Shown one piece after another: positions 1,910 through 31,681 of a DNA stretch of 32,000 bases. Origin of the DNA: Acaryochloris thomasi RCC1774 (lineage in GTDB: Bacteria; Cyanobacteriota; Cyanobacteriia; Thermosynechococcales; Thermosynechococcaceae); contig NZ_PQWO01000001.1 of the NCBI RefSeq assembly GCF_003231495.1, forward strand, positions 210,001-242,000. Reading direction: 5' to 3'. The notes beneath the pieces are model-generated. The model made no database searches. It worked only from the letters and a program-made list of their open reading frames with translations, and had not been told where the DNA came from. The first letter of the stretch is position 1; the number at the start of each line of letters is the position of its first letter. A program made the position numbers and the translations under genes.

Positions 1910-4213
1910 TCAATAAGAGTGACAGGGAACAGCAGCCTGAGCAAAGGCATTCGGCGTCACGTTCGGAGCCTGAGCTAGCAGCACAAGATTCCCTCTAGCA
2001 TCTCTTGCCCACCCCTGGGCCTCTTGTAAAGGACGAATGGGAGATGGCAATTTTCGCAGACCAGTGGTCGCTCCTCGCCACCGAGACGGAGCCTTTACGG
2101 CCCGCCTGATAGATGAAGGCCGGAGATCATCCCAGATGCTTTGGCTCCCGATCTCCTGTGGCTCTGAAGGTTTCCCCCCCCGTCGAGTGTGAATGAACTG
2201 GCTGCCCTGCTGCCCGGCTTGGCATCCCTGAGTTAGTACCGCAGTTCGGATCACTTCCGGCAGCGCCACCGTATCCTTACTCGGGTCAATCTCGGGCGTA
2301 TTCACCTGTACCACCCCATCAAGACCAAATCGAGAGTTGGCCGTGATATCGTTCGTCAATCCCGTATCTAAAGGCGGACGACTGAACCCGAGCAGCCCAT
2401 CAGTATTGATAGAGACAGCACCTCCATTTCCGAGAAATGCATCGGTACGAATATCACTGTTTTCACCAGGGACCGCGACCACCAGCGGAGCCGCAATCCG
2501 AATATTGCCTCCATCCCCTCCCGCGTTCCCAATGCCGCCAGAGGTTGAGATCATGCTCTCTTGACGTAGAAGAATATAGTCTGCGGCCCGCAGCACAATA
2601 TTGCCGCCACTGTCGGTTGCCGTCTCTGCATTGAGCAGCCCCCCCTCCAGGCGAATGGTATCAGCAAGAACGCTAATATTACCTGCTGAACCCTCCTCTA
2701 GGCTGCTGACCGTGACGAGTCCCTGATCTTGAACCAAAAGTTGCCCCGTTCTCAATACCAGGCTCCCGGCCATGCCCTCACCCTGAGCTTCTGCAATCAA
2801 GGCACTGGGTTGCAGATCGCCATTCTCATCAATTCCCACCCCCGTCACCAGAATGGAATCGGTGGCCATGATGCTTAAGCTACCTCCATCGCCATTGCTG
2901 ACACCTTGGCCAAAGCCATTTGGATCTGGATCTTCCACAGCCCCCACTGATACCTGGCCACCATTTTCAACCACCAGTCGTCGTGTGGTGATTTTCACCC
3001 GACCGGCATTCCCTGTCGCCCCCGCCACACTCTGGGAAAAGATCGCACTTTGCCCGCGTCGGCTCGGGTTGCGACCACTTACCCGAATCAGATCGGTGGC
3101 ATTAATCACAACCCGACCCGCATCTCCAGAATTATTCTCCCCAACGGTTGAAGAGGTTACTGTGCCACCATCTCTCAAAATAAGCTGACCCGTCTCGATC
3201 AACACCGTTCCTCCACTGACCGGCGCTCGAGTACGTGTTGCCACTTCGCTGTCACCGCTAAGCACAATTCGACCTGGCACCCGAAGGCTAATCGTACCGC
3301 CCTGAAAAGTCATATCCACAGGGTTAGTACTAAGCGTCGCATTGATTTTGGCGTTCAAAAGCGTTAGCTTCTGCCCCTGAACCTGCACCGAACCCGTACC
3401 TCGCCCCCCAGCCGTCACTAATGACCCTTGCGACAAGCGAATATTGCCTAGAGTCGCTCCCTCTGGCACGTCTAATATCCAGTTTTGCCCGACGGCACTG
3501 AGATCTACGCGGCTACCGGGGCCAACGCTCGCTAACTCAACGCGCCCCCGTGCGGCGGTAAGGTTCCCCCCGAGGAGATCTATATCACCGCCCACCAGAG
3601 CCAAGGTTCTGCCTGCATTAACCTGCAGCCCCACTGTTCTATCGCCCAATCGTCTTCGGGAAGAACCTAACCTCCCCGTGGTGCGCGACTGGTTTTGAAT
3701 GGGGGCAGCTGTGGGACCAAATCCAAGACCGATAGGCGTGCGAACAGTCAACAAAGAGGTGGGCTGAGTGGCGCTAAAGCGATCGCCTCCTGCAAACAAG
3801 ATTTGGCTAGCGGTGCTCGCTAAGAAGGAACCGTCCAGACTCAGACGAGCATTGGGACCAAAAAAGATACCGTTGGGATTAATGAAGAAAAGGTTGGCAT
3901 CACTATTTGGGACCCGAATTAATCCGTCAATATTGGAGGCTGCGGAACCTGTTACCCGGCTAATGATGTTAGTGACAGTAGGTCCACTGTTGAAGTCAGC
4001 AGACCCATTTATGGGGACTGAGAAAGTTCTGAAGCTCTGAAATAGATTACCGCCAACTTGCCGACCGCCATCAATATCAAAATTGAGTTGATCCGACGAT
4101 GTAACCTGAGTTCCGACCGTTGCATCGCCTTGAACCTGAGCCTGACCGTCACCAGCCGCCATCCCAAGCACACAAAGGCTAAAGGTTGATAAAAACAGAC
4201 AATTTTTAACCAT
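1910..4213 (-). CDS. Filamentous-haemagglutinin N-terminal (TPS) domain exoprotein, beta-helix repeat protein
   Basis: 767-aa ORF with signal peptide MVKNCLFLSTFSLCVLGMAAG. The TPS secretion domain is recognisable: NFDIDGGRQVGGNLFQSFRTFSV...NIISRVTGSAASNIDGLIRV...ANLFFINPNGIFFGPNARL. A long run of G/N/S/T-rich beta-helix-type repeats follows (GGNIVLRA, GGDGGNIRIAAP). The C-terminus EAQGWARDARGNLVLLA resembles the tail of cyanobacterial FHA-like proteins. Confidence 0.9.
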   Translation of the reverse strand: MVKNCLFLSTFSLCVLGMAAGDGQAQVQGDATVGTQVTSSDQLNFDIDGGRQVGGNLFQSFRTFSVPINGSADFNSGPTVTNIISRVTGSAASNIDGLIRVPNSDANLFFINPNGIFFGPNARLSLDGSFLASTASQILFAGGDRFSATQPTSLLTVRTPIGLGFGPTAAPIQNQSRTTGRLGSSRRRLGDRTVGLQVNAGRTLALVGGDIDLLGGNLTAARGRVELASVGPGSRVDLSAVGQNWILDVPEGATLGNIRLSQGSLVTAGGRGTGSVQVQGQKLTLLNAKINATLSTNPVDMTFQGGTISLRVPGRIVLSGDSEVATRTRAPVSGGTVLIETGQLILRDGGTVTSSTVGENNSGDAGRVVINATDLIRVSGRNPSRRGQSAIFSQSVAGATGNAGRVKITTRRLVVENGGQVSVGAVEDPDPNGFGQGVSNGDGGSLSIMATDSILVTGVGIDENGDLQPSALIAEAQGEGMAGSLVLRTGQLLVQDQGLVTVSSLEEGSAGNISVLADTIRLEGGLLNAETATDSGGNIVLRAADYILLRQESMISTSGGIGNAGGDGGNIRIAAPLVVAVPGENSDIRTDAFLGNGGAVSINTDGLLGFSRPPLDTGLTNDITANSRFGLDGVVQVNTPEIDPSKDTVALPEVIRTAVLTQGCQAGQQGSQFIHTRRGGKPSEPQEIGSQSIWDDLRPSSIRRAVKAPSRWRGATTGLRKLPSPIRPLQEAQGWARDARGNLVLLAQAPNVTPNAFAQAAVPCHSY

Positions 4214-13646: not shown

Positions 13647-13675
13647 CTCTCCCCAGAATTGGGGGGTCGGGGGGC
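13647..13675 (+). repeat. G/C-rich palindromic dispersed repeat, copy A
   Basis: ctct-cccc-agaatt-gggggg-tc-gggggg-c. It belongs to the same family as the copies at 25922-25953 and 26152-26183. Confidence 0.8.
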
Positions 13676-18673: not shown

Positions 18674-19282
18674 CTACTGAAAGTAAAAGGCCAGGAAGAT
18701 ATGAAACGCCAGCATCACCATAAAGAGACTGACAAAAATGATGTGACTCGATAGCCAAATCAGCCGCAGCCCGCGAATCAGTGGCCCCTTTGTAGTGGTG
18801 GGGAACACTTTCGCAACGGCACCTAGCTGCAGCGGTACCAAGCCAAAATATTTACGAGGCGATTCTAAAACACCCGTTTCAGCCACAACACCCATCAGTG
18901 CGGAGAGAGAGGTGCCCCAGAAAATCCAGAGGAAGATCATGTTGAAGTTGTCCCCCACCTGGCCGCCGGTATGAACCAAAATCATCGCGATCAGACCCAC
19001 GCCCAGGAAAATATGCAGGCTCCGCCACAGCACCATCGATCCTGGGATGCTGATTTTCCAGCGACGGCCTCGCTTTCGCACCGTCAACAGCATCTCCAAA
19101 ATCACAAAGGCCAGGGCGGTAAACCCTGTAATCATTTTATACAAGTCACCCTGCAAGGCCTCTAAGAGGTCAAAGGAATGCTCGCGCATTAACGGAATAT
19201 AGAGGGGACTAAACGCGAACGGCAGTAAAACGGCTGCCGTAATCAGCAGCAGAACAATGAGGGTTGAGAACTTGGGTTTCAT
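18674..19282 (-). CDS. Integral membrane protein with two H-X13-H pairs, candidate di-heme cytochrome b
   Basis: The ORF is open from GTG 19327, but ATG at 19282 (MKPKFSTLIVLLL) is the more plausible start. About 5 TM segments are present. Two of them carry histidine pairs 14 positions apart: SLHIFLGVGLIAMILVHTG and SSHIIFVSLFMVMLAFHIF. This is the bis-His ligation spacing seen in bc1 cytochrome b and ferric-reductase-type domains. It is the last gene of the heme operon. Confidence 0.55.
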   Translation of the reverse strand: MKPKFSTLIVLLLITAAVLLPFAFSPLYIPLMREHSFDLLEALQGDLYKMITGFTALAFVILEMLLTVRKRGRRWKISIPGSMVLWRSLHIFLGVGLIAMILVHTGGQVGDNFNMIFLWIFWGTSLSALMGVVAETGVLESPRKYFGLVPLQLGAVAKVFPTTTKGPLIRGLRLIWLSSHIIFVSLFMVMLAFHIFLAFYFQ

Positions 19283-19370: not shown

Positions 19371-20021
19371 CTAGGCACCTTCCAGCGGAATGTTGATCAT
19401 GATGCCGCCCATGACATCGTCGAGCTTGAAGACCTTGTCGGGGTAACGCTCTTTGTGAATCGGGTGGGTGTTGTGGCAGGTGACGCAGGCCTCTGCCACA
19501 GCCTTATCAGGATAGAGAGCCGAGAAATACTTCTGGCCGCCGACCTCCTGATATTCCTTGTAGGGTTCTCCTGTTTCGTTCACTTGCTCAATGGCCGTTT
19601 GCTCAAAGTCACTCTTTGGCCCCTGATTGTCATTGATGTACCAGGAAGAGATTAGGTTATAGGTAAAGGTGCCATCTTCTGAGGCTATCTCAGACCCCAG
19701 CCGAAACATTTGGGCCGGTAGCGGAATCCCGTTGGTCTGCTCCCACCCTTCGGTGGCTTCAATCTCAAGGACACCATCGTCTTTGGGCTTGCCTTCTAGT
19801 TTCTTGGCCCGATTAACGACGTGCTTCGTGTAGGCTGTGCGGTCTGAAGCCAGTGCGGTATGAATATAATCAGCTACTAACTCGGGCTGAACGCCCCCGG
19901 CCTGTGTCTGGGCACCGCCACCGCTACAGGCTACGGCGGTGAAGCAAATAACAATCGCCAGGGCAAATAAACCTAGGGTTCGTTGACGAAATCGTCGGAT
20001 TTGTCTGTTCGCAGAAATCAT
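19371..20021 (-). CDS. DUF3365 / Tll0287-like monoheme c-type protein (possible lipoprotein)
   Basis: 216-aa ORF. The signal peptide ends AVACSGGG. DUF3365-like blocks are IPLPAQMFR and LISSWYINDNQGPKSDFEQTAIEQV, with a single CVTCH heme site and the C-terminal FKLDDVMGGIMINIPL. Confidence 0.8.
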   Translation of the reverse strand: MISANRQIRRFRQRTLGLFALAIVICFTAVACSGGGAQTQAGGVQPELVADYIHTALASDRTAYTKHVVNRAKKLEGKPKDDGVLEIEATEGWEQTNGIPLPAQMFRLGSEIASEDGTFTYNLISSWYINDNQGPKSDFEQTAIEQVNETGEPYKEYQEVGGQKYFSALYPDKAVAEACVTCHNTHPIHKERYPDKVFKLDDVMGGIMINIPLEGA

Positions 20022-20093: not shown

Positions 20094-20891
20094 CTAATTG
20101 CCCGACCGCTGTTTTTCTAGGGCGCGGACCATCTCTAGGGTTTGCAGGGATTCAGTGGGCGGTCGGGCAAAGTTGGAGGCCACTAGGTCATCATCGAAAA
20201 TGCTTTTGTAGGCGTATTCCATACCGTGACAGTTCATACAGACTTCTTTGACCATGCGATCGCGAGGCAACAGTGTATACGTGTTGTTGTGATTGACTTG
20301 AGTCGGCTTTCCACTGCCTGCGTCATGGCGCGGGAGATGGCAGGCCGCACAGGTTGTGGACTGTGCAGAGGGGCGAGGCAGCGTTCCTTCCTGCTGCCAG
20401 AGCTGGGCGTGTTTTGAGTTTTTGTAGTTGCGAGAATGATCGTCGTTGTGACAGCTTAGGCAGCTATCGACTGCTGCTGTTTGGGTCTTAACCGTGTGGA
20501 CATCGTGACAGGTGTTGCAGTTCATGACCTGGTTTTGGGCCTCAACTTTCATGGGCAAGTGGGCCATGGCAGGCGTCAGCGGCGACTCCCCCTCCAGCAG
20601 ACGAATGCCGTGCTTACCGAGCAAGAACGTATCCACCGCCTGTTCGTGGCAGGAGCGACAGCTCTCGTGGTCTGGCTGAGCAATAAACTGCTTGCTCTTT
20701 GAATCTTGATGGCAGCTAGAGCAGTTCACTTCGGCAAGGGCATGGGCACTTCCCTGCCAGCGTTCGGTGATCTCCTGAAGTTCAGCTTCTGTAGATGCTA
20801 TTGCATCTACAGAAGAGCCAAAAAACGGCTCTAGGAAAACGCCCCCCATAAGGCAGTACAGAGAAATGAGCAAGACACTCAGCACCTTCAT
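20094..20891 (-). CDS. Hexaheme c-type cytochrome (periplasmic/lumenal)
   Basis: 265-aa ORF with a signal peptide. Six CXXCH motifs are present: CSSCH, CRSCH, CNTCH, CLSCH, CAACH and CMNCH. Its start overlaps the upstream gene stop by 4 nt (ATGA). Confidence 0.9.
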   Translation of the reverse strand: MKVLSVLLISLYCLMGGVFLEPFFGSSVDAIASTEAELQEITERWQGSAHALAEVNCSSCHQDSKSKQFIAQPDHESCRSCHEQAVDTFLLGKHGIRLLEGESPLTPAMAHLPMKVEAQNQVMNCNTCHDVHTVKTQTAAVDSCLSCHNDDHSRNYKNSKHAQLWQQEGTLPRPSAQSTTCAACHLPRHDAGSGKPTQVNHNNTYTLLPRDRMVKEVCMNCHGMEYAYKSIFDDDLVASNFARPPTESLQTLEMVRALEKQRSGN

Positions 20892-21535
20892 GAGCGCCCC
20901 CCTTTGAACTCTTGCGATAAATCAGGTTTCGGGGCTGTTTGAACTTTCGTTGTCACCGTTCGCACGGGCAAAGCAGGCTGGGGCATAAAGTCAGGCTGAT
21001 CAAGGTTCTGGCGCAGAAATCCTGTGGAAATAGTGCGATGGTCATGGTAGTTGTGGCATCCGGCCGTCCAGCAGCCATCAGCGGTGAACCCATCGTGGCT
21101 TTTCAGATCACCCTCAATGATGCCCTGATGGCAAGCCATACAGAGATCGGGCTTTAGATTGACGCCCCGGCCAAACATATGGACGTGCTCGTTATGGCAG
21201 GTGGTACAGGTCAACGCAGCTATTTTTTCTAAGTCACCTGCCCATCGAGGATCACGGAACTTCTTCGCACCGTGGGCATCCGTCGCCATCTCGGCTTCGT
21301 GACAGCGCAGGCAGGTTTCATTGCTGACAGGTTTAAATCCTTCATGACAAGAGGCGCAAGAGGCTTCGAATAAAACGTGGCCATCCGAGGTTGTGCCCGG
21401 GAGAAACACCGTCTTGTGATCGGTGGCAAAGGCAGCCCCGAGCCAACAGGTCAACAGCAAGCAGAGCGTCACCACAGCCGTTTTGACACTCAACAAATTC
21501 CCGATGCGGAAACGTCTGCGGGTGTTGGCAGTCAC
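20888..21535 (-). CDS. Cytochrome c3-like pentaheme protein (4 x CXXCH plus 1 x CX4CH), N-terminally anchored or secreted
   Basis: 215-aa ORF. The GTG start is preceded by GGAGG 7 nt upstream. Heme motifs are CASCH, CLRCH, CTTCH, CMACH and CWTAGCH (21053-21073). The last resembles the CGTAGCH site of Desulfovibrio tetraheme cytochrome c3. Confidence 0.9.
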   Translation of the reverse strand: MTANTRRRFRIGNLLSVKTAVVTLCLLLTCWLGAAFATDHKTVFLPGTTSDGHVLFEASCASCHEGFKPVSNETCLRCHEAEMATDAHGAKKFRDPRWAGDLEKIAALTCTTCHNEHVHMFGRGVNLKPDLCMACHQGIIEGDLKSHDGFTADGCWTAGCHNYHDHRTISTGFLRQNLDQPDFMPQPALPVRTVTTKVQTAPKPDLSQEFKGGRS

Positions 21536-21549
21536 ACCGAGCCTCCGGT

Positions 21550-22620
21550 CTATACCAGCAGGGCGATCACGATCACGGCAATCACCCCCCCGGCAATGAG
21601 GGCGAGCAGACCTTTTTCACTACCCTCCTCTAAGTTCTCCGCAACGCTGGCCTTTGGCTCGCCTTCAGCATTCGCCATTGTGACCGGCTCTGCATGTGTA
21701 GGCGACTCAACTGCAGGCGGAGACGTTTCTAGCTGCACCTGCTGCTGGGTATAGTCTGCACCATCCAACATGATCTCAGTAATGGTGCCGTAGGCATCGA
21801 CCCAGGCCTCTTTGACCTCCGGTCTCCAGTCTTGACCGAGATACTGCTCAAAGGTCTTCAGCAAAGAGTTACCCACCAGCGGATAATGCTCTGGCAGTGC
21901 CCCATACTTTACATGGCGCGCCCCCAGCCCTCTCAAGCTTTTGCTCAGAACCTCAGGGTTACGCAAGTTCTCAATCACAAGCACCAAAGACTGCAGTAGC
22001 TTCTGCTCCTGCTCCTTCATATGGGTGTTCTCAAACAGCGGCTTCGCGGCTGGATAGTCGGTGAACAGATTTGTATAAAAACTACCGACAAACGCACTTG
22101 CCTCAGGCGTAATCTGGGCAAAACTCTTCTCCAGTAACTGCACCTGATGCTCGGCGGCATCCGGCTCAGCGACGCTAGGTGCACTCGCGCCTTCCAGCTC
22201 TAGATCCGCTGCGTTATAGTCTGCACCTGCGAGCATCGTTTCACTGATGGCTCCGTAGGCATCAACCCAGGCCTGCTTCACTTCTGGGGTCCAGTCCTTG
22301 CCGAGGTACTGCTCAAAGGTCTTCAGCAAAGAGTTACCCACCAGCGGATAATGCTGCGGCAGGGCACCATACTTCACATGGCGCGCGCCTAAGCCTTCCA
22401 GGGCGTCACCAAGAATCTCAGGGTTACGCAGATTTTGAATCACAAGCACGAGAGATTTAAGCAGCTTTGGCTTTTGCTCCTCCATTGCGGTGCCTGCAAA
22501 CAGCGGTTCAGCCGCAGGATAATCTGTGAATAAGTTGTCGTAGAAGCTAGTGACAAAATCATCAGCCATCGGCTTAATTTGGTCAAAACTACGCTCTAAT
22601 GTTTCTACTTGTAAAGACAT
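21550..22620 (-). CDS. Tandem (two-domain) Vitreoscilla-Hb/flavohemoglobin-type 3-on-3 globin with a C-terminal TM anchor
   Basis: 356-aa ORF with two copies of a globin fold (aa 3-135 and 158-290). Each aligns by eye to VHb: FY(D/T)NLFTDYPAA.PLF (B10 Tyr), EEQKPK/KEQEQK (E7 Gln), LGARHVKYG (F8 His) and HYPLVGNSLL...AWVDAYG. The C-terminal LLALIAGGVIAVIVIALLV is a TM tail. There is no N-terminal signal peptide. Confidence 0.85.
   Translation of the reverse strand: MSLQVETLERSFDQIKPMADDFVTSFYDNLFTDYPAAEPLFAGTAMEEQKPKLLKSLVLVIQNLRNPEILGDALEGLGARHVKYGALPQHYPLVGNSLLKTFEQYLGKDWTPEVKQAWVDAYGAISETMLAGADYNAADLELEGASAPSVAEPDAAEHQVQLLEKSFAQITPEASAFVGSFYTNLFTDYPAAKPLFENTHMKEQEQKLLQSLVLVIENLRNPEVLSKSLRGLGARHVKYGALPEHYPLVGNSLLKTFEQYLGQDWRPEVKEAWVDAYGTITEIMLDGADYTQQQVQLETSPPAVESPTHAEPVTMANAEGEPKASVAENLEEGSEKGLLALIAGGVIAVIVIALLV
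21751..22614 (-). repeat. Internal tandem duplication of the globin domain (period 465 nt)
   Basis: A 49-nt identical block tactgctcaaaggtcttcagcaaagagttacccaccagcggataatgct occurs at 21842-21890 and at 22307-22355. The flanking sequence is similar across roughly 400 nt per unit. Confidence 0.85.
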
Positions 22621-23276: not shown

Positions 23277-24197
23277 TTAAAGGTTTAAAGCCCGTCCACG
23301 TATCAGCGTTTGATGCTGCTGTTCAGAGAGTCCTTTCGCATTGGTAAAGACAGCGCCAGCAACCACACAGTCAGAAAAATCAACGTTTGTTAGAGTCGTA
23401 CTTTCCAAATTGGCATCTCGAAAATCTGCGCCGGTCACAGTTGCGTCTGAGAGGTCAGCTCCCTCCAAATTAGCGCTGTAGAAGGATGCTTCTGTCAGAT
23501 TGGCTCCCACAAGCTGAGTCTGCAGCAGCTCTGCATGGTCGAGGCTGGCTTGCTGGAGCTGAGTTGCCTGCAGAATTGCGCCCCGCAGCTTGGCGGCAAT
23601 GAGGTCAGCGTTAGTTAGATCCGCTCCCCGCAAATCTGCTTGCTGCAGAAGACAACGTTCTAGAGCCGCTCCCATCAGTTGAGCGTTGGGCAGTTGCGTC
23701 CCCTTGAGAACGGCATCATTTAGTTTTGCGCCGCGCAGATCGGCCTGCGGAAACTGTGCTGCTGTTAAATTAGCCTTCATTAAAATGGCGTCTCGGAAAC
23801 AGACGGTCTCTCCCTGGGCTTCTGTAAAATCAGCATGTTCCAAGATGGCTCTAGAGAAATCAGCCCGATCTAAGGTAGCTTTAGGAAGCTTGATGCCTGA
23901 AGCATTCACGGCCTGTAGCTGCGTTCCCTCTAGGTGAGCGGCGTTCAATAGCGCCTGTGAGAGGGTCGCCTGCTGAAAGTTCGCCCCTGAGAGCTTCGCT
24001 AACATCAAGGTCGCGGCGGTGAAGTTCGCGTGGCTGCATGAGGCTCCGGTCAGGTTTGCCAACCGAAGATAAGCTTGCTCAAACTGTCCCTGATCGAGCT
24101 GGGCGTTCTGCAAGTCAATATTGCTCAGTTCAGCGCCCTGGAGCGATTGCCCCTGCTGAACCTGGCTCTGGACTTCTGCCGCCGTCATGGTTGTCAT
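23277..24197 (-). CDS. Pentapeptide-repeat protein
   Basis: 306-aa ORF made almost entirely of A(D/N)LxG-type pentapeptides (ANLTGASCSHANFTAATLMLAKLSGANFQQATLSQALL...). No signal peptide is present. Its ATG at 24197 (or 24188) overlaps the 3' end of ccsA. Confidence 0.9.
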   Translation of the reverse strand: MTTMTAAEVQSQVQQGQSLQGAELSNIDLQNAQLDQGQFEQAYLRLANLTGASCSHANFTAATLMLAKLSGANFQQATLSQALLNAAHLEGTQLQAVNASGIKLPKATLDRADFSRAILEHADFTEAQGETVCFRDAILMKANLTAAQFPQADLRGAKLNDAVLKGTQLPNAQLMGAALERCLLQQADLRGADLTNADLIAAKLRGAILQATQLQQASLDHAELLQTQLVGANLTEASFYSANLEGADLSDATVTGADFRDANLESTTLTNVDFSDCVVAGAVFTNAKGLSEQQHQTLIRGRALNL

Positions 24198-25863
24198 AAT
24201 TTTGCACCGCTGCTGTAAACCTCAAGCCGCCTTGATGACGGACGATTGCACTCAACACAAAGAGCAGATCTAGCCCGACGAAACCCGCCACAATCAAGGC
24301 GGAGCCACCGGTACTAAAGCCATAGCTGTGCAGTCCAGTCCCCAAAACAAAGTTGACGCCGTACCAAGCCATTAGCACGGCGTTGAAGGAAACGACGCTG
24401 GCAATGGTGAGACCAAAGGCACCGATCCAGCCCACTAAGCGACCGTGAAGTGGAGCCAAGTAGCACAGCAGCGCAATCAGCGCCCAGGTCTCTTTTGGAT
24501 CCCAGCCCCAAAACCGTCCCCAGGAGAAGTGCGCCCAGATGCCGCCCAAAATGATGCCTGCCGTTAACAGTAGGATGCCGACTTGCAGAACCTGATAGTT
24601 CCAGCGGGACAGCTTCTGAATCTGTTGGGATTGAGGCAAGAACAGATAGTAGCCCAGGGTCACGTGGCCTAGCCCCATCGCTAGGGCGAAGCTAGCGTAG
24701 CCGAGGGTAATCGTAGGGACATGGATGCTGAGCCAAAAATTATCCCGTAGAACTGGCACCAGGGGGCTGATGCTGGGGTCGAGAACAGCGGGAAGGCTGT
24801 CGGCTAACACCAAACACAGAACCGATAGAGGGGCTGCTGCCAATAGGTAGTAGTGGGCTTTGGATCGCCACTCGAAGAGCAGGGCCAGCGCTGCAATGCC
24901 AAATCCGACCCAGATCACGGATTCGTACATATTAGTGACGGGGGGACGATCTGCAATCTGTACCCGCAGGAGAAAACCATAGCACTGGGTCAATAATCCG
25001 GCACTGAAAACGCCCATTGCGCTCCAGTACAGATTCCATTGGGGAAAGTTGAGCGCCATCAGCATCAAAATAAATGCGATCGCATATAGCCACCAAGCTT
25101 TGGCAAAGGGATGGAAGTGATTGAAGAACACCTCTCGCTGGAGGATGCGATCGCTTGGATAGATCTGCGGGCTCAAGTCCACAAGCTGCTGACGCAAAGT
25201 CTCTGCCTGCTGCCCCACCGCCGCTAGGTTCTGCGGATCTTGCAAATAGGTCTGCTGGAGCTGCTCAAACTGAGCGATCAGGCGACTGGAGTTAGGGTAG
25301 TAAGCCTCGCTGTCGGTTAGCCCGAGCCATTTGCCCTTTAGATCGCTGGGATGGGGAACCAGCGGTAGAGATTGAGACCCGACGGTCTGCATCATCAGAT
25401 CAATGCGATCGTAGAGGTTGAGGGCTTCTCGTTCATCTCGCGTCAGGGTTTGATCTTGGCTTTGCTTCTGTTCTGCTGTTTGCAGAAGGTTGCCTAAGTC
25501 AGACTGCGCTAATGCCGCAAAGGAAAAGTGTTTTTGGTCGGGATTAAGACCTAGTTTTTCTTTGAGCGGACGATAGCTCAATAGAATGAACGGCTCCTGA
25601 TTCCAGTTGCGATCGTTCCACCACAGGGAGAGGTAGGTTTGCTGGCTGTTTAGGCGCTGCCCTGTCTCAGTGCGGTAGCTCGGAGAACCGTGAATCTGGG
25701 CTACGGTCTCGCGGGCCACGGTATCTAGGGGCTTTTTACGGCCTTCAAGCTGAACGGCAAAGGTGGACAGCGAGTCTAAGGGGTGGTCTTGAGATTGGCT
25801 GAGGGGCGCTAGGAGAATGAGTAAGCCCAGACAAAGACTCAGGAGAAATTTAGGAGTTTTCAT
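24130..25863 (-). CDS. ccsA: Cytochrome c biogenesis protein CcsA/ResC-type (System II heme-handling WWD protein) with a long N-terminal extracytoplasmic extension
   Basis: The ORF is open from 25977, but that extension is translated repeat sequence. ATG at 25863 gives MKTPKFLLSLCLGLLILLAPLSQS. After a soluble region of about 250 aa come about 8 TM segments and the W-rich motif WGRFWGWDPKETWALIALL, with conserved His residues in the flanking loops. Confidence 0.87.
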   Translation of the reverse strand: MKTPKFLLSLCLGLLILLAPLSQSQDHPLDSLSTFAVQLEGRKKPLDTVARETVAQIHGSPSYRTETGQRLNSQQTYLSLWWNDRNWNQEPFILLSYRPLKEKLGLNPDQKHFSFAALAQSDLGNLLQTAEQKQSQDQTLTRDEREALNLYDRIDLMMQTVGSQSLPLVPHPSDLKGKWLGLTDSEAYYPNSSRLIAQFEQLQQTYLQDPQNLAAVGQQAETLRQQLVDLSPQIYPSDRILQREVFFNHFHPFAKAWWLYAIAFILMLMALNFPQWNLYWSAMGVFSAGLLTQCYGFLLRVQIADRPPVTNMYESVIWVGFGIAALALLFEWRSKAHYYLLAAAPLSVLCLVLADSLPAVLDPSISPLVPVLRDNFWLSIHVPTITLGYASFALAMGLGHVTLGYYLFLPQSQQIQKLSRWNYQVLQVGILLLTAGIILGGIWAHFSWGRFWGWDPKETWALIALLCYLAPLHGRLVGWIGAFGLTIASVVSFNAVLMAWYGVNFVLGTGLHSYGFSTGGSALIVAGFVGLDLLFVLSAIVRHQGGLRFTAAVQNYDNHDGGRSPEPGSAGAIAPGR

Positions 25864-25921
25864 GTTCGCGGGTGGTGACTGGGCGATTGAGAATGGGAGA
25901 GGTTCCAGATTGATTTGCACT

Positions 25922-25953
25922 GCCCCCCCGGCCCCCCAATTCTGGGGGGAGAG
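25922..25953 (-). repeat. G/C-rich palindromic dispersed repeat, copy B (inverted relative to copy C)
   Basis: The reverse complement reads ctct-cccccc-agaatt-gggggg-cc-ggggggg-c. It has 1 mismatch to copy C over 32 nt. Confidence 0.85.
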
Positions 25954-26151
25954 AGGCCGAGGTTCTGCATTTCCCAATAGATATCGCTACGGGAGCATTG
26001 TCTGTTGATAAAAATGGCGTAAGCAGACGCTTGGGAAGATCGTGGAGTACCTGTATTCGTCCCCAATATTCGCTGACACTGCGGGACTTCAAGTACTCAA
26101 TGATTTTTATCAAACTCGAAAGCTGTTGCGAACTTGAGAGGATGCTGTCGA

Positions 26152-26183
26152 CTCTCCCCCCAGAATTGGGGGGCTGGGGGGGC
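26152..26183 (+). repeat. G/C-rich palindromic dispersed repeat, copy C
   Basis: ctct-cccccc-agaatt-gggggg-ct-ggggggg-c. Confidence 0.85.
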
Positions 26184-26226
26184 CAATGCAGAACGGAGCG
26201 GTTTTTACTCCAAAAAGGAAAGAGCA

Positions 26227-28065
26227 TCACGTCTCTACCTGGACTGTGCTGTTTGCGAGGGGCTCTGACCGACCTGCCCCTAAAGGAGAAGCTTTGCTAA
26301 CGGCCATCGCATCTTCCTCCACAAACCTCTCTGTAGGTCCTGAGGTCATCGTTCGCCAATATTTGCCGAGATGTTTGCCATAGAACATCGTGCTAATGCC
26401 GCTCACCACGAGCAGCGCCCCACTCCAGGTCAAAGCCGTTACCCACAGCGGTTCTCGCTTGACCTGCAGCGTAGACTGATTCAAATCACCTGGATTCCAG
26501 GAGGCTTGGGCAATCTTCCAGCCCTGATACCAAGTGGGGTGATTCATCCAGACATCTCGATGCTCAACGCTGCCCGTGTGGGGATCCTGCAGCTTGACTT
26601 TGCTGGTCCACATGGCGACGGACTCATCCCCTTCATTGCGCTCGACAATGAAGTCTTCAAGGCCCAGGTCAAAGGGGAGCGCCAGCGATCGAGGACTGAA
26701 AAAGGCAAATATGGCCCCCGCTGCATCGTTCAGTTCCGATGGTTCGCCCCAAGGTAGCCACTGTTCAGCGCCGGTTGGGGTCGTCACGAGCAAACCAGGG
26801 GAGCCTTCTTGATCAGATGGCACCACCTGACGCTGCACCTGCGCCTGGGTCAGCTCATTCACTAAGGTGATCTGAAAATCTGCCCAGCCCGTCTGAACAG
26901 GCTGTCCCGGCACCAACGGTTCTGAGGTAAACTCTTGAGCAGAGCGGAGGCCATAGAAAATCTGCCCCTGAGAATCGGCAACGACGCGGAAGAGACGGTC
27001 CGCAACGAGCGGGGCTGTCTGATAGGTAATTTCTAGATTTTGGGCGTTAATGTTGGGGCTGAGTTCAGTTCCTGACAGGACGGTCCGCACGGGGTCAAAC
27101 CCTTCCTGAGCAAAGACATACCAGCGCTCAACGCCAGTTGAATGCTGGACCTCAAGGCCCAAAACGGGGTTCCGTAGCTCTTGGGAAATCGTGATCGGCT
27201 GTGATTGATTATTAAGGCGAAAGTCAGGCCAAACATGGCTCACGGTTACCTGCAGATCGCGATCCAGCTTAAGGGGGTGATCGAGGGCCTGCTCGACATC
27301 TAAGGTCTGCTTTTTACCTCTTGTCTCAATCTGCATCTGCCCCCATCGGCCAAGGACTGAGTTCTGAGATTCAGATAAAAGCTGCTGTAGCTGTTGGTCG
27401 TCTTCAGCCTGCACTAGCTCTAGCTGGGCAGGGCCAAGCGTTGTCTGGCGATACGCACGCGGAAAGTCAGCTAGCCAAACCTGCGTCGATTGGCCCATAC
27501 GATCGCTGTTGAGCTGTAGCTGCACCGCTCGATTGGGAACCGCGCCCCCTTCGGCAAACTGAATGGTTTCAACGACGTGATCGCGATATCCCAGCAGGGA
27601 CAGACCATTAAACTGAGCAGGTGACACGGACTGATCTGGATTCACTCGCAGCAGAGTTTGCTGCGGCTCTTGCCCCCATTGGGCCACCTCCAGCATGTCT
27701 CCTTCCGTACTTAGTTGATGCTGAGGGGGGCCGTCTGTGCGCAGCACGAGCATCCCTTCAGCACCCAGATGGATCACGGCAGCGGAGCCAGCAATCAAGA
27801 CAATCAGGCCCAGATGCGCTAGCGCGAAGCCGATCTTCCGCGCTCCTTTCCAGGGATAGCGAGATAGGGCAGAAACACCAAGATTGACGGCGAGCATCAA
27901 CATCAAGGCCCCAAACCAGGGGCTCTTATAGATCAGCTGCTGGACTGCTGCGGAACCCACCTGAGTTTCGTAAAACGTTGCGCCGATCAGGATAGTTGCG
28001 ATCGCACTGAGCAGCGGCACCGCCAGCTTGATGGACCCTAAAAATGGATAAACTTTGGCGAACAT
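26227..28065 (-). CDS. ccsB: Cytochrome c biogenesis protein ResB/CcsB(Ccs1)-type (System II)
   Basis: 612-aa ORF. The ResB-like N-terminus is FLGSIKLAVPLLSAIATILIGATFYE...SPWFGALMLMLAVNLGVSALSRYPW...FALAHLGLIVLIAGSA. A large extracytoplasmic domain follows, then the C-terminal WMNHPTWYQGWKIAQASW and a final TM segment. Confidence 0.85.
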   Translation of the reverse strand: MFAKVYPFLGSIKLAVPLLSAIATILIGATFYETQVGSAAVQQLIYKSPWFGALMLMLAVNLGVSALSRYPWKGARKIGFALAHLGLIVLIAGSAAVIHLGAEGMLVLRTDGPPQHQLSTEGDMLEVAQWGQEPQQTLLRVNPDQSVSPAQFNGLSLLGYRDHVVETIQFAEGGAVPNRAVQLQLNSDRMGQSTQVWLADFPRAYRQTTLGPAQLELVQAEDDQQLQQLLSESQNSVLGRWGQMQIETRGKKQTLDVEQALDHPLKLDRDLQVTVSHVWPDFRLNNQSQPITISQELRNPVLGLEVQHSTGVERWYVFAQEGFDPVRTVLSGTELSPNINAQNLEITYQTAPLVADRLFRVVADSQGQIFYGLRSAQEFTSEPLVPGQPVQTGWADFQITLVNELTQAQVQRQVVPSDQEGSPGLLVTTPTGAEQWLPWGEPSELNDAAGAIFAFFSPRSLALPFDLGLEDFIVERNEGDESVAMWTSKVKLQDPHTGSVEHRDVWMNHPTWYQGWKIAQASWNPGDLNQSTLQVKREPLWVTALTWSGALLVVSGISTMFYGKHLGKYWRTMTSGPTERFVEEDAMAVSKASPLGAGRSEPLANSTVQVET

Positions 28066-28252: not shown

Positions 28253-29062
28253 CTCTTTAGCAAACACGCTTAGATTGCATTGCGGCCCCTATGCCACACG
28301 AAGAGAGAAAGGTAAAGGCAACCCCCACTAAAGCCGATAGGACTTCAAAGAAAAATGCAATTGAGCTGGAAAATACGATTTTTGTTCAGGGTCAGTTTCA
28401 CGATTGAGAAAGCAGAGAACCGCTGATTTTAGCCTCAGTTGATAATTTTAGAAATTTGTTTTTTGGGCCAATCCCGTATTTATACGGAGGGGATTAGTAA
28501 GCAAGCTGTGACTGAAATCACAGAAAGAACAGGTAGAGAACTCAACATCCGTAAAAACACGGATTCACCATCGGGAAAGCCTATAGAAAGGAGCTTTGCA
28601 GCTCAATGGTTGGTCGAAAACCTGACGTTGATGTTGAATTGAGCTGATATCAGGTGCGTTTTCAAACCTGAAAATATACATTCATTTTCAAGATTTCTCT
28701 TTTTTGCGACAAAAAGCGAGCATTGTGTGATTTGAATTCCAGTACGTTTCCGGAGTTCAGCATGGGCATACTAACGACTAAGTTAGGAACAAGCGGGGGG
28801 CAGTGTGACCCGAAAGGTGATCAAACTTGCCCCTATCCTGACATCAATGACTCTATCCAGTGTTCGAGTCTCTCACTCTAAAACACCTGTCCTTAATTCA
28901 TATAGAAACAGAGGCGGTGTGACGAGAGTTTGTTCTGAGGTTCCAGCTCAAAGCAAACACGGGTGCAACACACACCCAGTCGAATTGAGGTCACACCGTA
29001 CCTCTGCCAGACGATGCCTATCTCTCGCAAGTTTGTTCATTTCACCAGCTAAGAAGACACCT

Positions 29063-31681
29063 ATGACACACGATACATCACAACCCAAAAGACGAGGAAG
29101 CAAGCTTTATCGGCCAGTGGCGATCGCAGCAATGATTGCCGGTGGTTTGACTCAGTCCCTCCTTCCGGCCTTCGCTGCCGGTACTGCAGCAGGCGTCAGC
29201 ATTAGTAACACCGCCACAGCCACCTACCGCGATGCTCCCGGCGGTAACGTTATTGATGCCACGTCCAATACTGTTAACATCACCGTTGCTGAGGTTGCCG
29301 GTGTAACCGCAGTAGCTTCTGGCTTTAATGACACTGATGGTGGCGCTGTTGAAGCAAATGATATCCTCGAATTCACCTTTGACATCACCAACATAGGTAA
29401 CGCAGCAACAGATCTCTTCATCCCCGGCCTGAATGGTCTCATCGAAGAAAACTTTGATGCCACCACAGTCGAGATCATCAGCGTCAACGGAACTGCCGTA
29501 GGCCCCGTCGCTGTACTCGCTAATGGTTCTACCCTTGGTAGTCTAAGCCTTGACGACCTCGACCCCGACGCAATTGTGCAGGTTAGAGTCACCGGTACTC
29601 CTGCAGTGAACACACCTGCAGGTGCAGACGTCGGTGTCACGATCGGTAACACAGGCCCCAATAACAACAGCCCTAGCACGCAAAACCAGCCTGACGATCC
29701 CACTGGTGATGGCACCAACAACGACGAGATTCGTACAGTTGACGCTGATGCAGGCAATGGCGCCCCCGTTAACGGTGAGCGTGAAGCCAGTGCCGAGAAT
29801 AGCATTCCCTTTGCTAGTTCCGTTGACCCTCTCGCGTTAGCCACGGTCACGAAAGAAGTTGCGACTTTGCTTCCGGGTGCTGGCCCCACTGCTAGCGACG
29901 ACCTGATTACCTACAACTTGGGCTTGACCGTTGAGGGTAGCTCCCCCAACGCAGCCTTCGTTGCTGAAGACCTCGTTGGTACGCCGATGACCATTGACGG
30001 CAGCACTGAGACTCGCATTCTCGTTTCTGATGCTATTCCCGCCGGAACAGTTCTGAATGCAGTGCCCACCGCACCTGCAGGCTGGGAAGTGGTTTACTCC
30101 ACAAACGATCCATCAGCGACAGCACCCATTGGAACTGGCCCTAATACAGCAGCGTGGATTCGCAACAGCGTAACTCCTTTGAATGCAGGTAACTTTGCAT
30201 CCGTGGAAAGAGTGGGTTTCATTCGCACAGCGACGACTCCGCTAGCCGCAGGTACTGATGTTACGGCAACAACTCCGTTCCAATTTACCGTGATTACTTC
30301 TGGCCTCGCTCCAGAAGGTGGCCAAGTTGCTAACATCGCTCAGGTCTTTGGTCGCACCTTCGATGATCCCGCGATTGCTGGCTCACCCACTGATCAAGTT
30401 GTCTACGACGAATCTGGAGACAGCCAGCCCAACAACTTCAACGATAATCAAACGCCTCCCAATCCAAACGGCAGCAACTTCGTTCCTGCTGAAGATCGAG
30501 GGGTTGCAGATCCAGTAGCTCAAGGCACTGACACTAACGGCGACAATACAGGTTCAGGTCCTGATGGTGAAGCCAACGTTGTTAACATCGGCAATGTTGC
30601 TGGTGCTGATGACATTCTTAACGGTACCGATGGTGTTCCAGGTGCCCAAGGCCCCACCGACCAAAATGACGATTTTACAAACCTATCTACTGATGTCCCA
30701 GTGGGTACAGGTCCTGCAGATACTTTCAATCCAGCTGCAGTTACCTTTGATAACACCATTCAGAACCCATCTAGTGCTGGCTTCATTGCTGACGTGACGC
30801 TGCAGCCCATTTCTCCTACCCAGGCAGAAAACGCAGACGACAGTCCTCTGACAGGACAATACGATGGTGCTGATGCTATTCCTTTCGGCACTCAGGTCAC
30901 GATTACTGCTACGGATGAGAACGGTGACGTTTTAACGGCAACCTATACCTACGTTAATCTTGCAGGTGTTCCCACCTTCCGGCTTGATAGCAGCACAACC
31001 ACTGCTGGTGGCGGCGGCGCAATACCGACGCCCGGGGGCCCTGTTCACGTCAACTATGGTGACCTACCTGCAGGTCAGACCCTTGACTACACAGTCTCGG
31101 TTGATTTACCACCTACTGTCACACCTAACCAAGAGATCTCGATTCCGGTTGTAGCCTTCCCGGATGACAATCCAACTACAGCCCCTGGTTTAACTGGAGA
31201 GTCAACCAACAACATAACGATTGACCGCATCTATACCGGCTTCATGCAGCTCACGAAGCAAGCTCAGGTTCTGGATCAGAATGGCGTAATTGTGCAGCCA
31301 TTTGCCTCCGATTTGACTGGCGTTGAGTTCCGACCGGGTTACCAAATCGACTACCGGATTGGTTACGAAAACATTTCAACCCCTGTCGTAGGTACCGGCA
31401 ACGTGGGCCTCACAGCCTTTGAATTTGAAGTTGTAGAAGATGGTACCGTCGCCACTGGCACTAGCACCACTCAAAACAACTGGGCGGCTTTCACGGATCA
31501 TGAGCAGAACACCAGCGCCACGCAGGGCGATGTGGAATTCTTCACCAACAGTGGTGATGCTACACCCCTGACAACCACAGATCCTCTCGCCAATACTCAG
31601 GTTGAGAAGTATGAGAACCCGGTTGGTCAGGTTGATCCTGGTCAAACAGGTGAGTTCCAATTCCGTCGCCGCCTCCAGTAA
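29063..31681 (+). CDS. Large secreted, Cys-free, acidic DUF11/SpaA-like beta-sandwich repeat surface protein
   Basis: The frame is open from GTG 28805, but ATG 29063 gives MTHDTSQPKRRGSKLYRPVAIAAMIAGGLTQSLLPAFA, a signal peptide. The mature protein begins ISNTATATYRDAPGGNVIDATSNTVNITVAEVAGVT and ends PGYQIDYRIGYENIS...VDPGQTGEFQFRRRL, both DUF11-type strand motifs. It is rich in T/N/D/G/A, has no Cys and has very few basic residues. Confidence 0.7.
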   Translation: MTHDTSQPKRRGSKLYRPVAIAAMIAGGLTQSLLPAFAAGTAAGVSISNTATATYRDAPGGNVIDATSNTVNITVAEVAGVTAVASGFNDTDGGAVEANDILEFTFDITNIGNAATDLFIPGLNGLIEENFDATTVEIISVNGTAVGPVAVLANGSTLGSLSLDDLDPDAIVQVRVTGTPAVNTPAGADVGVTIGNTGPNNNSPSTQNQPDDPTGDGTNNDEIRTVDADAGNGAPVNGEREASAENSIPFASSVDPLALATVTKEVATLLPGAGPTASDDLITYNLGLTVEGSSPNAAFVAEDLVGTPMTIDGSTETRILVSDAIPAGTVLNAVPTAPAGWEVVYSTNDPSATAPIGTGPNTAAWIRNSVTPLNAGNFASVERVGFIRTATTPLAAGTDVTATTPFQFTVITSGLAPEGGQVANIAQVFGRTFDDPAIAGSPTDQVVYDESGDSQPNNFNDNQTPPNPNGSNFVPAEDRGVADPVAQGTDTNGDNTGSGPDGEANVVNIGNVAGADDILNGTDGVPGAQGPTDQNDDFTNLSTDVPVGTGPADTFNPAAVTFDNTIQNPSSAGFIADVTLQPISPTQAENADDSPLTGQYDGADAIPFGTQVTITATDENGDVLTATYTYVNLAGVPTFRLDSSTTTAGGGGAIPTPGGPVHVNYGDLPAGQTLDYTVSVDLPPTVTPNQEISIPVVAFPDDNPTTAPGLTGESTNNITIDRIYTGFMQLTKQAQVLDQNGVIVQPFASDLTGVEFRPGYQIDYRIGYENISTPVVGTGNVGLTAFEFEVVEDGTVATGTSTTQNNWAAFTDHEQNTSATQGDVEFFTNSGDATPLTTTDPLANTQVEKYENPVGQVDPGQTGEFQFRRRLQ

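Follow-up and report, generated by a model that had tools for sequence, protein, structure and literature searches.

If the two System II cytochrome c maturation genes found on contig NZ_PQWO01000001.1 of the cyanobacterium Acaryochloris thomasi RCC1774 are the organism's sole pair, then they should mature all of its c-type cytochromes. If instead they constitute a second system, then their position upstream of a group of multihaem cytochrome genes raises the question of which substrates they serve. The genes encode a ResB-like protein and a long form of CcsA, and lie within a stretch of 32,000 nt (positions 210,001-242,000; this whole stretch is referred to as the window) that was analysed with a list of its open reading frames (ORFs) and profile searches. 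A preliminary description of the same DNA proposed, by analogy, that the pair may be a haem lyase specialised for the adjacent multihaem substrates and the non-standard CX4CH haem site of the pentahaem protein among them. The analyses presented here favour, with a probability of about 0.6, a somewhat different answer: the pair would be a working CcsBA in two pieces and would serve, as a second synthase, the multihaem proteins of its own cluster, with both its activity and its clients predicted from sequence. It is probably dedicated to this cluster rather than specific to the CX4CH motif.

Comparison with known synthases indicates how the two proteins correspond to the fused CcsBA. The PF05140 score of the ResB-like protein (Table 1) stands against a cutoff of 24.6 bits, and there is no NCBIfam match; its transmembrane (TM) helices lie at residues 5-23, 50-68, 74-92 and 540-558, and its periplasmic domain comprises ~440 aa. 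The long CcsA has a TM helix at residues 7-25, is soluble to approximately residue 250 (a periplasmic domain of ~230 aa), and continues into a C-terminal haem-handling core, with the PF01578 match covering the C-terminal 200 residues. In phmmer comparisons with PDB sequences, CcsA residues 39-544 align to residues 293-805 of the Bacteroides thetaiotaomicron CcsBA and to residues 411-905 of the Helicobacter hepaticus CcsBA (E ~1e-48). Therefore, the counterpart of the N-terminal CcsA region in fused CcsBA is the periplasmic domain ahead of the WWD core. The extra N-terminal region of about 250 aa pointed out previously is thus real, but it is the standard mid-protein periplasmic domain of CcsBA and no add-on. 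Similarly, ResB-like residues 10-120 and 452-565 align to residues 10-118 and 220-329 of the H. hepaticus protein, which is the N-terminal third of the fused CcsBA. An AlphaFold (AF2) model of the whole long CcsA matched the H. hepaticus structure 7S9Y (TMq 0.68 over 594 columns, E 1.8e-16), and CcmF was the second-best fold match; the confidence of this model (predicted local distance difference test, pLDDT) is 80-90 in the N-terminal domain and lower in the membrane core.

The residues on which haem handling depends are also in place. In CcsA, P-His1 is H382 (WLSIHV), TM-His2 is H474 (PLHGR) and P-His2 is H513 (GLHSYG), each aligned to the corresponding H. hepaticus CcsBA motif, and the WWD motif occupies residues 449-461 (WGRFWGWDPKETW). 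The motif and all three histidines are invariant in 28/28 aligned CcsA sequences. In the ResB-like protein, the candidate for TM-His1 is H84 (ALAHLG), which aligns with the His of the LLHASF motif of H. hepaticus CcsBA and is kept in eight ResB-like sequences, seven of them cyanobacterial and one a bacterial orthologue. The features that define a System II CcsA (PF01578 together with a WWD motif of the form W-G-x-[FY]-W-x-W-D-x-K-E, P-His1, P-His2 and TM-His2) were accordingly all found in the one protein, and those that define a CcsB/ResB (membership of the ResB family, TM helices, TM-His1, a large periplasmic domain and a C-terminal TM helix) in the other. Since the two proteins are collinear with fused CcsBA in both sequence and predicted fold, the pair is a split CcsBA. 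None of the residues that haem handling is known to require is missing from it, and it is presumably active as a synthase. The 612-aa length of the ResB-like protein, the shared orientation of the two genes and their coordinates, all given in the preliminary description, were borne out by the ORF list and the profile matches.

Relative to the fused synthases (H. hepaticus, 7S9Y/7S9Z; B. thetaiotaomicron, 25vk), the pair shares full-length collinearity, the four essential histidines and the WWD motif. It differs in consisting of two polypeptides, with genes that are 48-360 bp apart, and in a ResB-like periplasmic domain that is approximately twice as long; sequence identity is just 24-25%. Additionally, the fused proteins are the general synthases of their own organisms, whereas the pair is probably a second system. 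The split lies where fused CcsBA joins its CcsB and CcsA parts. In the proposed mechanism, haem would enter a cytoplasmic-side site formed by TM-His1 of the ResB-like protein and TM-His2 of CcsA, and would then move to the external WWD site, between P-His1 and P-His2, where it would be thioether-linked to the Cys-X(n)-Cys-His motifs of secreted apoproteins. The pair would act alongside a canonical short Ccs1/CcsA responsible for the monohaem cytochromes of photosynthesis, and its most likely job would be the 12 haem sites of the pentahaem protein (including CX4CH), the hexahaem protein and a Tll0287-like protein encoded by the cluster.

The long CcsA belongs to a widespread family. It has more than 120 cyanobacterial relatives, all of 546-607 aa and 61-79% identical to it, and ~65% identity is maintained across cyanobacterial orders; carriers include PCC 7367, Myxosarcina GI1, Coleofasciculus, Romeria LEGE 07310, Leptothoe and many marine metagenome-assembled genomes (MAGs). 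Canonical ccsA was sought in species-representative genomes with a Synechocystis-like query, and the loci that it retrieved were used after being checked with the TIGR03144 model. Short ccsA loci encoding ~330-350 aa were retrieved from 60-odd cyanobacteria. When the canonical protein of MAG J06635_1 was then used as the query, seven relatives were found to carry both forms: MAGs J06635_1, J06628_6 and P01_H01_bin.21, Leptolyngbya SIO3F4, the isolate Romeria LEGE 07310, contig ERZ26696514:ctg303834, and an Almyronema sp. MAG, the last matched by genus name alone. For instance, the 3,935,139-bp contig ERZ26696514:ctg303834 has a long ccsA (P0037) at 3.25 Mb, together with the whole cluster, and a short one at 0.885 Mb. 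Because seven relatives hold both forms, once on a single 3.9-Mb contig, the long CcsA family is not the housekeeping enzyme. At the level of the family, and as far as ccsA is concerned, the pair is therefore not the sole one, and we infer that the canonical system is present in the A. thomasi genome too. Exact-sequence look-ups of the window CcsA (with either start) and of the ResB-like protein gave no record. The closest to CcsA is a fragment of 97% identity in MAG P01_A01_bin.17, a genome that is not among the canonical-CcsA matches listed.

The two forms are also clearly distinct from each other. The TIGR03144 equivalog describes a protein of ~330 aa, without an N-terminal periplasmic domain, that scores at least 187.6 bits; the window CcsA scores 155 bits and thus falls outside it. 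The long forms P0060 and P0103 similarly score 159-163 bits, versus 360 bits for the short form of the same genomes. In MAG J06635_1, where these values are 159 bits (P0060) and 360 bits, the long and short proteins are 31% identical over the core. A neighbour-joining tree of the core domain, the comparison of CcsA lineages suggested at the outset, resolved the cyanobacterial long forms as monophyletic (bootstrap 100) and nested among bacterial long forms (100), and the cyanobacterial short forms as a separate group (100), so that the long form is outside the cyanobacterial/plastid-type clade. The impression that the pair is unlike the cyanobacterial housekeeping Ccs1/CcsA thus proved correct, as it represents a separate CcsA lineage. 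The long and canonical proteins share the superfamily (PF01578), the WWD motif and histidines, and common host genomes; the canonical form lacks the N-terminal TM helix and the periplasmic domain, and its WWD region reads WANEAWGSYWSWDPKE as opposed to WAHFSWGRFWGWDPKE in the long form. A ResB gene beside a short ccsA was seen just in deltaproteobacterial loci and in no cyanobacterial housekeeping locus, with an N-terminal fragment of Ccs1 as the query. The canonical Ccs1/CcsA serves monohaem photosynthetic cytochromes, and CcsA/CCS1 is presented as the single pathway in a review on maturation in plastids and cyanobacteria (PMC5526843). Full-text literature searches found neither a second synthase nor multihaem cytochromes described for cyanobacteria.

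If the pair is a second system, as is likely, its neighbourhood gives an indication of its clients. Ten independent cyanobacterial loci were compared, of which five have the cluster adjacent to the pair, two have it in part, two do not have it adjacent, and one (L007) is uninformative. The full cluster adjoins the pair in the window, in PCC 7367 (L001), in L003 and L167 (two genomes from ERZ25070591), and in L164 (a 3.9-Mb genome). It recurs with three different gene orders and in differing orientations, and yet the set is constant: the ResB-like protein, the long CcsA, a pentapeptide-repeat protein, a globin, the pentahaem and hexahaem cytochromes, a Tll0287-like protein and a five-TM protein. 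In the two partial cases, L005 and Myxosarcina L166, a divergent globin gene, the first gene of the cluster, is cut by the end of the contig. Thus, conserved linkage, as expected of a substrate-dedicated System II isoenzyme, was found in 5/10 loci, plus the two partial ones. Because this gene set recurs in distant cyanobacteria, and because the motif CWTAGCH of the pentahaem protein is letter-identical in three of them (L001 and L003 among those), the features of the locus are not due to chance. The earlier claim that the pair is tied to the adjacent multihaem genes is accordingly supported by linkage in most related loci despite rearrangement, although the tie to CX4CH is not. In the window, the pair is indeed upstream of the haem genes and on the same strand, but it is not strictly adjacent to them as had been described, because the pentapeptide-repeat gene, a 656-bp spacer and the tandem-globin gene intervene. 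The coordinates of all of these features are collected in Table 1.

Table 1. Genes and elements of the split CcsBA locus; positions refer to the window unless a related locus is named
Feature	Position	Strand	Remarks
ResB-like gene, CcsB half of split CcsBA-type synthase	26227-28065	minus	612 aa; PF05140 47 bits
MITE-like insertion, resB-ccsA spacer	25922-26183	no strand	32-nt terminal inverted repeats, 198 nt between
Long-form CcsA, CcsA half of split CcsBA	24130-25866	minus	578 aa; PF01578 107 bits
Pentapeptide-repeat protein	23277-24197	minus	306 aa; PF00805 187 bits
Tandem globin with C-terminal TM anchor	21550-22620	minus	356 aa; PF00042 twice; TM helix 338-356
Membrane-anchored pentahaem cytochrome c	20888-21535	minus	215 aa; four CXXCH + CWTAGCH
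Secreted hexahaem cytochrome c	20094-20891	minus	265 aa; six CXXCH
Tll0287-like (sCache_haem) lipoprotein, one CVTCH	19371-20021	minus	216 aa; PF11845 74 bits
Five-TM membrane protein, two intramembrane His pairs	18674-19282	minus	~203 aa; no Pfam match
Rieske gene of related loci	L001 11849-12319; L003 8496-8909; L164 11854-12321; L168 10071-10535		absent from window

Several observations weigh against a synthase dedicated to the cluster. In Coleofasciculus (L168), ResB, CcsA and Rieske genes lie together beside cyd genes, and the interval between -8 and +10 kb contains no gene for a c-type cytochrome; the 8.8-kb contig of L004 carries the CcsA gene but neither a ResB nor a cytochrome gene. 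The linkage is therefore not universal, and a broader clientele is possible. Outside cyanobacteria, metagenomes from soil and other sources contain long CcsA homologues (full length, 35-47% identity) in abundance. A ResB-like gene usually lies immediately upstream of them, and in most cases the surrounding 10 kb are free of CXXCH-rich genes. Therefore, the long architecture, considered as a possible mark of specialisation, was rejected as such. These pairs share with the cyanobacterial ones the two-gene architecture and homology over the full length, and are sister groups in the tree, but they have no link to the pentahaem/hexahaem family, homologues of which were not found near non-cyanobacterial long-CcsA loci; their neighbours are unrelated genes or belong to alternative complex III. 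The latter case is represented by five metagenome contigs (L059 8538-19737, L067, L069, L074 and L075), in which the pair is followed by a pentahaem gene and, ~5 kb on, by a monohaem gene. L059 was identified by Pfam as an alternative complex III operon, with pentahaem ActA-like, molybdopterin/FeS ActB-like, NrfD-like and monohaem ActE-like genes and CXXCH sites only; the other four contigs share its haem-gene pattern.

These observations would be accommodated by a general synthase that is specific to a compartment, with the CcsBA-type pair serving one membrane system (for instance, the plasma membrane/periplasm) and the canonical Ccs1/CcsA the other (the thylakoid lumen). Every c-type cytochrome exported to that compartment would then be matured by the pair, which would simply have the multihaem cluster as its most frequent neighbour. 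Related pairs do look general-purpose, and the most constant neighbour of the long CcsA gene is not a c-type cytochrome gene at all: it encodes a small Rieske protein with a twin-arginine translocation (TAT) signal and a lipobox, and is present in L001, L003, L005, L006, L007, L164, L167 and L168. System II placement by compartment has also been proposed for anammox bacteria (PMC4222556). However, the pair has stayed next to the haem cluster in at least three gene orders. To our knowledge, moreover, the canonical system alone matures both periplasmic and lumenal cytochromes in many well-studied cyanobacteria. A compartment-specific division of labour is thus considered unlikely, and a synthase dedicated to the cluster is preferred.

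A narrower alternative is that the pair is needed solely for the CX4CH site of the pentahaem protein, and that the canonical system attaches all other haems. The site itself, CWTAGCH at 21053-21073 (residues 155-161), is exactly as first described, follows CASCH, CLRCH, CTTCH and CMACH, and is invariant in the cyanobacterial orthologues. Additionally, the WWD motif of the long CcsA opens with a clade-specific His, H446 (WAHFSW; codon 24529-24531). This residue is His in 119/120 cyanobacterial long CcsA sequences (P0001-P0120), 117 of which contain WAHFSWGRFWGWDPKE exactly, and is N, D or E in all other groups; the canonical cyanobacterial CcsA reads WANEAW. The substitution could reflect an adaptation. 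Precedents for motif-specific synthases exist in the System II isoenzymes of Wolinella succinogenes (PMC12285233), and an altered WWD motif occurs in the second pair of anammox bacteria (PMC4222556).

The distribution of the CX4CH site nevertheless argues against this narrower role. An exhaustive search of 1.84 billion proteins with the pentahaem sequence returned just 372 representative clusters. Outside cyanobacteria, the pentahaem and hexahaem proteins are one protein of 430-480 aa with 11 sites, of which the former is the N-terminal and the latter the C-terminal half; in the window, the two genes overlap by 4 nt. This 11-haem family has ten invariant non-motif His and one invariant Met, and no curated family model. 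It is found in Burkholderiales, Gammaproteobacteria, Myxococcota and Planctomycetota, with named members in Gammaproteobacteria, Burkholderiales, Polyangium and Phycisphaeraceae that are annotated merely as "cytochrome c3 family protein". Among the 53 representatives with a recognisable fifth site, 50 have C-x3-G-C-H-N-[YF]-H and three have CXXCH. The C-x3-G-C-H form is thus ancestral to the family across several phyla, and the three representatives with plain CXXCH show that the position tolerates either form. Furthermore, no ResB or CcsA gene was found within 10 kb of the CX4CH-bearing 11-haem gene of Polyangium spumosum (L169) or of a Burkholderiales contig (L170). Since CX4CH occurs in other phyla without a local lyase, it is a hallmark of the family that is apparently matured there by general systems. 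CX4CH sites of Desulfovibrio cytochrome c3 are likewise matured by a general system. The canonical cyanobacterial Ccs1/CcsA is known to handle monohaem proteins only. A literature search on CcsBA with CX4CH, and on undecahaem proteins with nitrite, returned nothing relevant. Specialisation for CX4CH, as originally proposed by analogy, is therefore not supported, and a requirement for the pair at this site alone is decidedly unlikely. That the pair is a housekeeping system, the sole ccsA/ccsB of the organism, is highly improbable: no further ccs gene was found in the 32-kb window, but relatives also carry a canonical short CcsA, which passes the TIGR03144 cutoff, and the long form does neither this nor group with the cyanobacterial/plastid-type clade.

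A synthase dedicated to the multihaem cluster has precedents in other bacteria. W. succinogenes has System II isoenzymes for different motifs, namely NrfI (CXXCK), CcsA1 (CX15CH) and CcsA2 (CXXCH) (PMC12285233). As in the cyanobacteria described here, there are several synthases of the CcsBA lineage per genome, and the genes of the specialised ones lie next to those of their substrates. Dedication was shown genetically there, whereas here it is suggested by synteny. The W. succinogenes enzymes are also fused proteins, and their motifs are beyond general systems, whereas CX4CH apparently needs no local lyase elsewhere. Anammox bacteria have a second CcsA-CcsB pair (for instance, kuste3100/3101) with an altered WWD motif (PMC4222556). 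Here, too, an extra, adjacent CcsA-CcsB pair exists beside a canonical one, the haem-binding WWD motif is altered, and the hosts have internal membrane compartments and many multihaem proteins. The anammox proteins are, however, short (257 and 322 aa) and have the strongly modified motif WGxxAWGxYFLWDAK, whereas the cyanobacterial pair is long and has a motif that is canonical but for one His. The pair thus joins a known class of substrate-linked System II synthases. The principle has precedents, and what is new is its host phylum, its split CcsBA form and its substrate family; its specificity is putative.

The locus therefore points to a second synthase lineage in many cyanobacterial lineages, and to a set of proteins with 12 haems that is likely dependent on it. 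Expression of multihaem cytochromes in cyanobacteria may require the pair. The locus also provides a natural test of why several System II synthases are kept in one organism, whether for motif, haem number or compartment. Finally, it brings to light the 11-haem family, which adjoins nitrate-assimilation genes in the Burkholderiales contig. In both L169 and L170, a flavoprotein resembling the NirB N-terminus (Pyr_redox_2 + Rubredoxin_C + Fer2_BFD) is followed by the 11-haem gene and then by a Tll0287-like gene. In L170 (1-21437), the 11-haem gene is also accompanied by a monohaem cytochrome and a globin, and lies inside a cluster of nasA, a nasT-like ANTAR regulator, nrtABC and nirBD. This context hints at an N-oxide-related function of the module. 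The 11-haem family has faint similarity to NrfA/ONR/HAO (NrfA/ONR, E ~1e-4). The fused 11-haem protein was modelled poorly by AF2 (pLDDT 63), and the model gave one weak Foldseek match, to the Brocadia HAO (E 4e-3, TM 0.30), which may be taken as a hint only.

The remaining proteins of the cluster suggest what the cytochromes might do. The tandem-globin gene is the first of the haem-protein block, and has orthologues in L001 (a single globin), L003, L164 and L167, as well as at the contig edge in L005 and L166. The five-TM gene is the last conserved member of the cluster. Its protein is 58-63% identical to orthologues in L001, L003, L164 and L167, whose alignment sets the start at 19282, and has the His pairs H105/H119 and H195/H209, or H-x13-H twice (numbering of the 217-aa ORF). 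This pattern makes it a candidate for a transmembrane electron carrier of the dihaem b type. Together with the anchored, cytoplasmic tandem globin, it suggests that electrons are passed between the multihaem proteins and the globin across the membrane. The CVTCH of the Tll0287-like protein is kept in orthologues, and covalently bound haem c is the defining feature of the family (bioRxiv 10.64898/2026.02.01.703092). The pentapeptide-repeat protein has no TM helix or signal peptide, and its gene overlaps the 3' end of ccsA. Orthologues of ~307 aa and 34-42% identity are encoded in L001 (12658-13584), L003 (8925-9848), L164 (767-1693) and L167 (8978-9901), and it is thus a cytoplasmic, conserved member of the cluster. 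A thioredoxin-like gene, a candidate of the CcsX/ResA type, is part of the cluster in L001 and L164; neither this gene nor the Rieske gene was found in the window.

These components may be combined into one tentative reading, which as a whole is rather unlikely. A considerable subset of cyanobacteria would carry a self-contained electron-transfer module, consisting of the 11-haem protein split 5+6, the sCache-haem protein, a dihaem-b membrane protein, a membrane-tethered globin, a Rieske lipoprotein and the pentapeptide-repeat protein. The module would have its own CcsBA-type synthase because the canonical Ccs would be unable to mature multihaem/CX4CH proteins; the WWD His would be the corresponding adaptation, and the function of the module would lie in the chemistry of N-oxides (NO, nitrite or hydroxylamine). 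The N-oxide role is suggested because of the nas/nrt/nirBD context of the proteobacterial homologue and the faint similarity to HAO/NrfA.

On either side of the cluster, the window contains two large genes for surface or secreted proteins, one with a two-partner secretion (TPS) domain (767 aa, 1910-4213) and one with DUF7925 (958 aa, 28805-31681), which have no apparent relation to the synthase. A scan of the window for promoters and terminators gave counts no higher than in shuffled sequence and was uninformative.

The start of ccsA required correction. The longest ORF, 24130-25977, begins at a TTG and encodes 615 aa. This start was rejected, since the ORF reads through one arm of an inverted-repeat element and the orthologues begin at the ATG at 25866, at which their N-termini align (MKTPKFLL..., 578 aa). 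The element, which resembles a miniature inverted-repeat transposable element (MITE), is 262 bp long, and its arms (25922-25953 and 26152-26183) are 97% complementary. Its core palindrome, CCCCCCAGAATTGGGGGG, recurs once in the window, at 13649-13666, where 0 chance matches are expected. The MITE-like insertion therefore accounts for the 360-bp spacer between resB and ccsA and for the false TTG start ahead of the true ATG, and it may separate the resB-like gene and ccsA transcriptionally.

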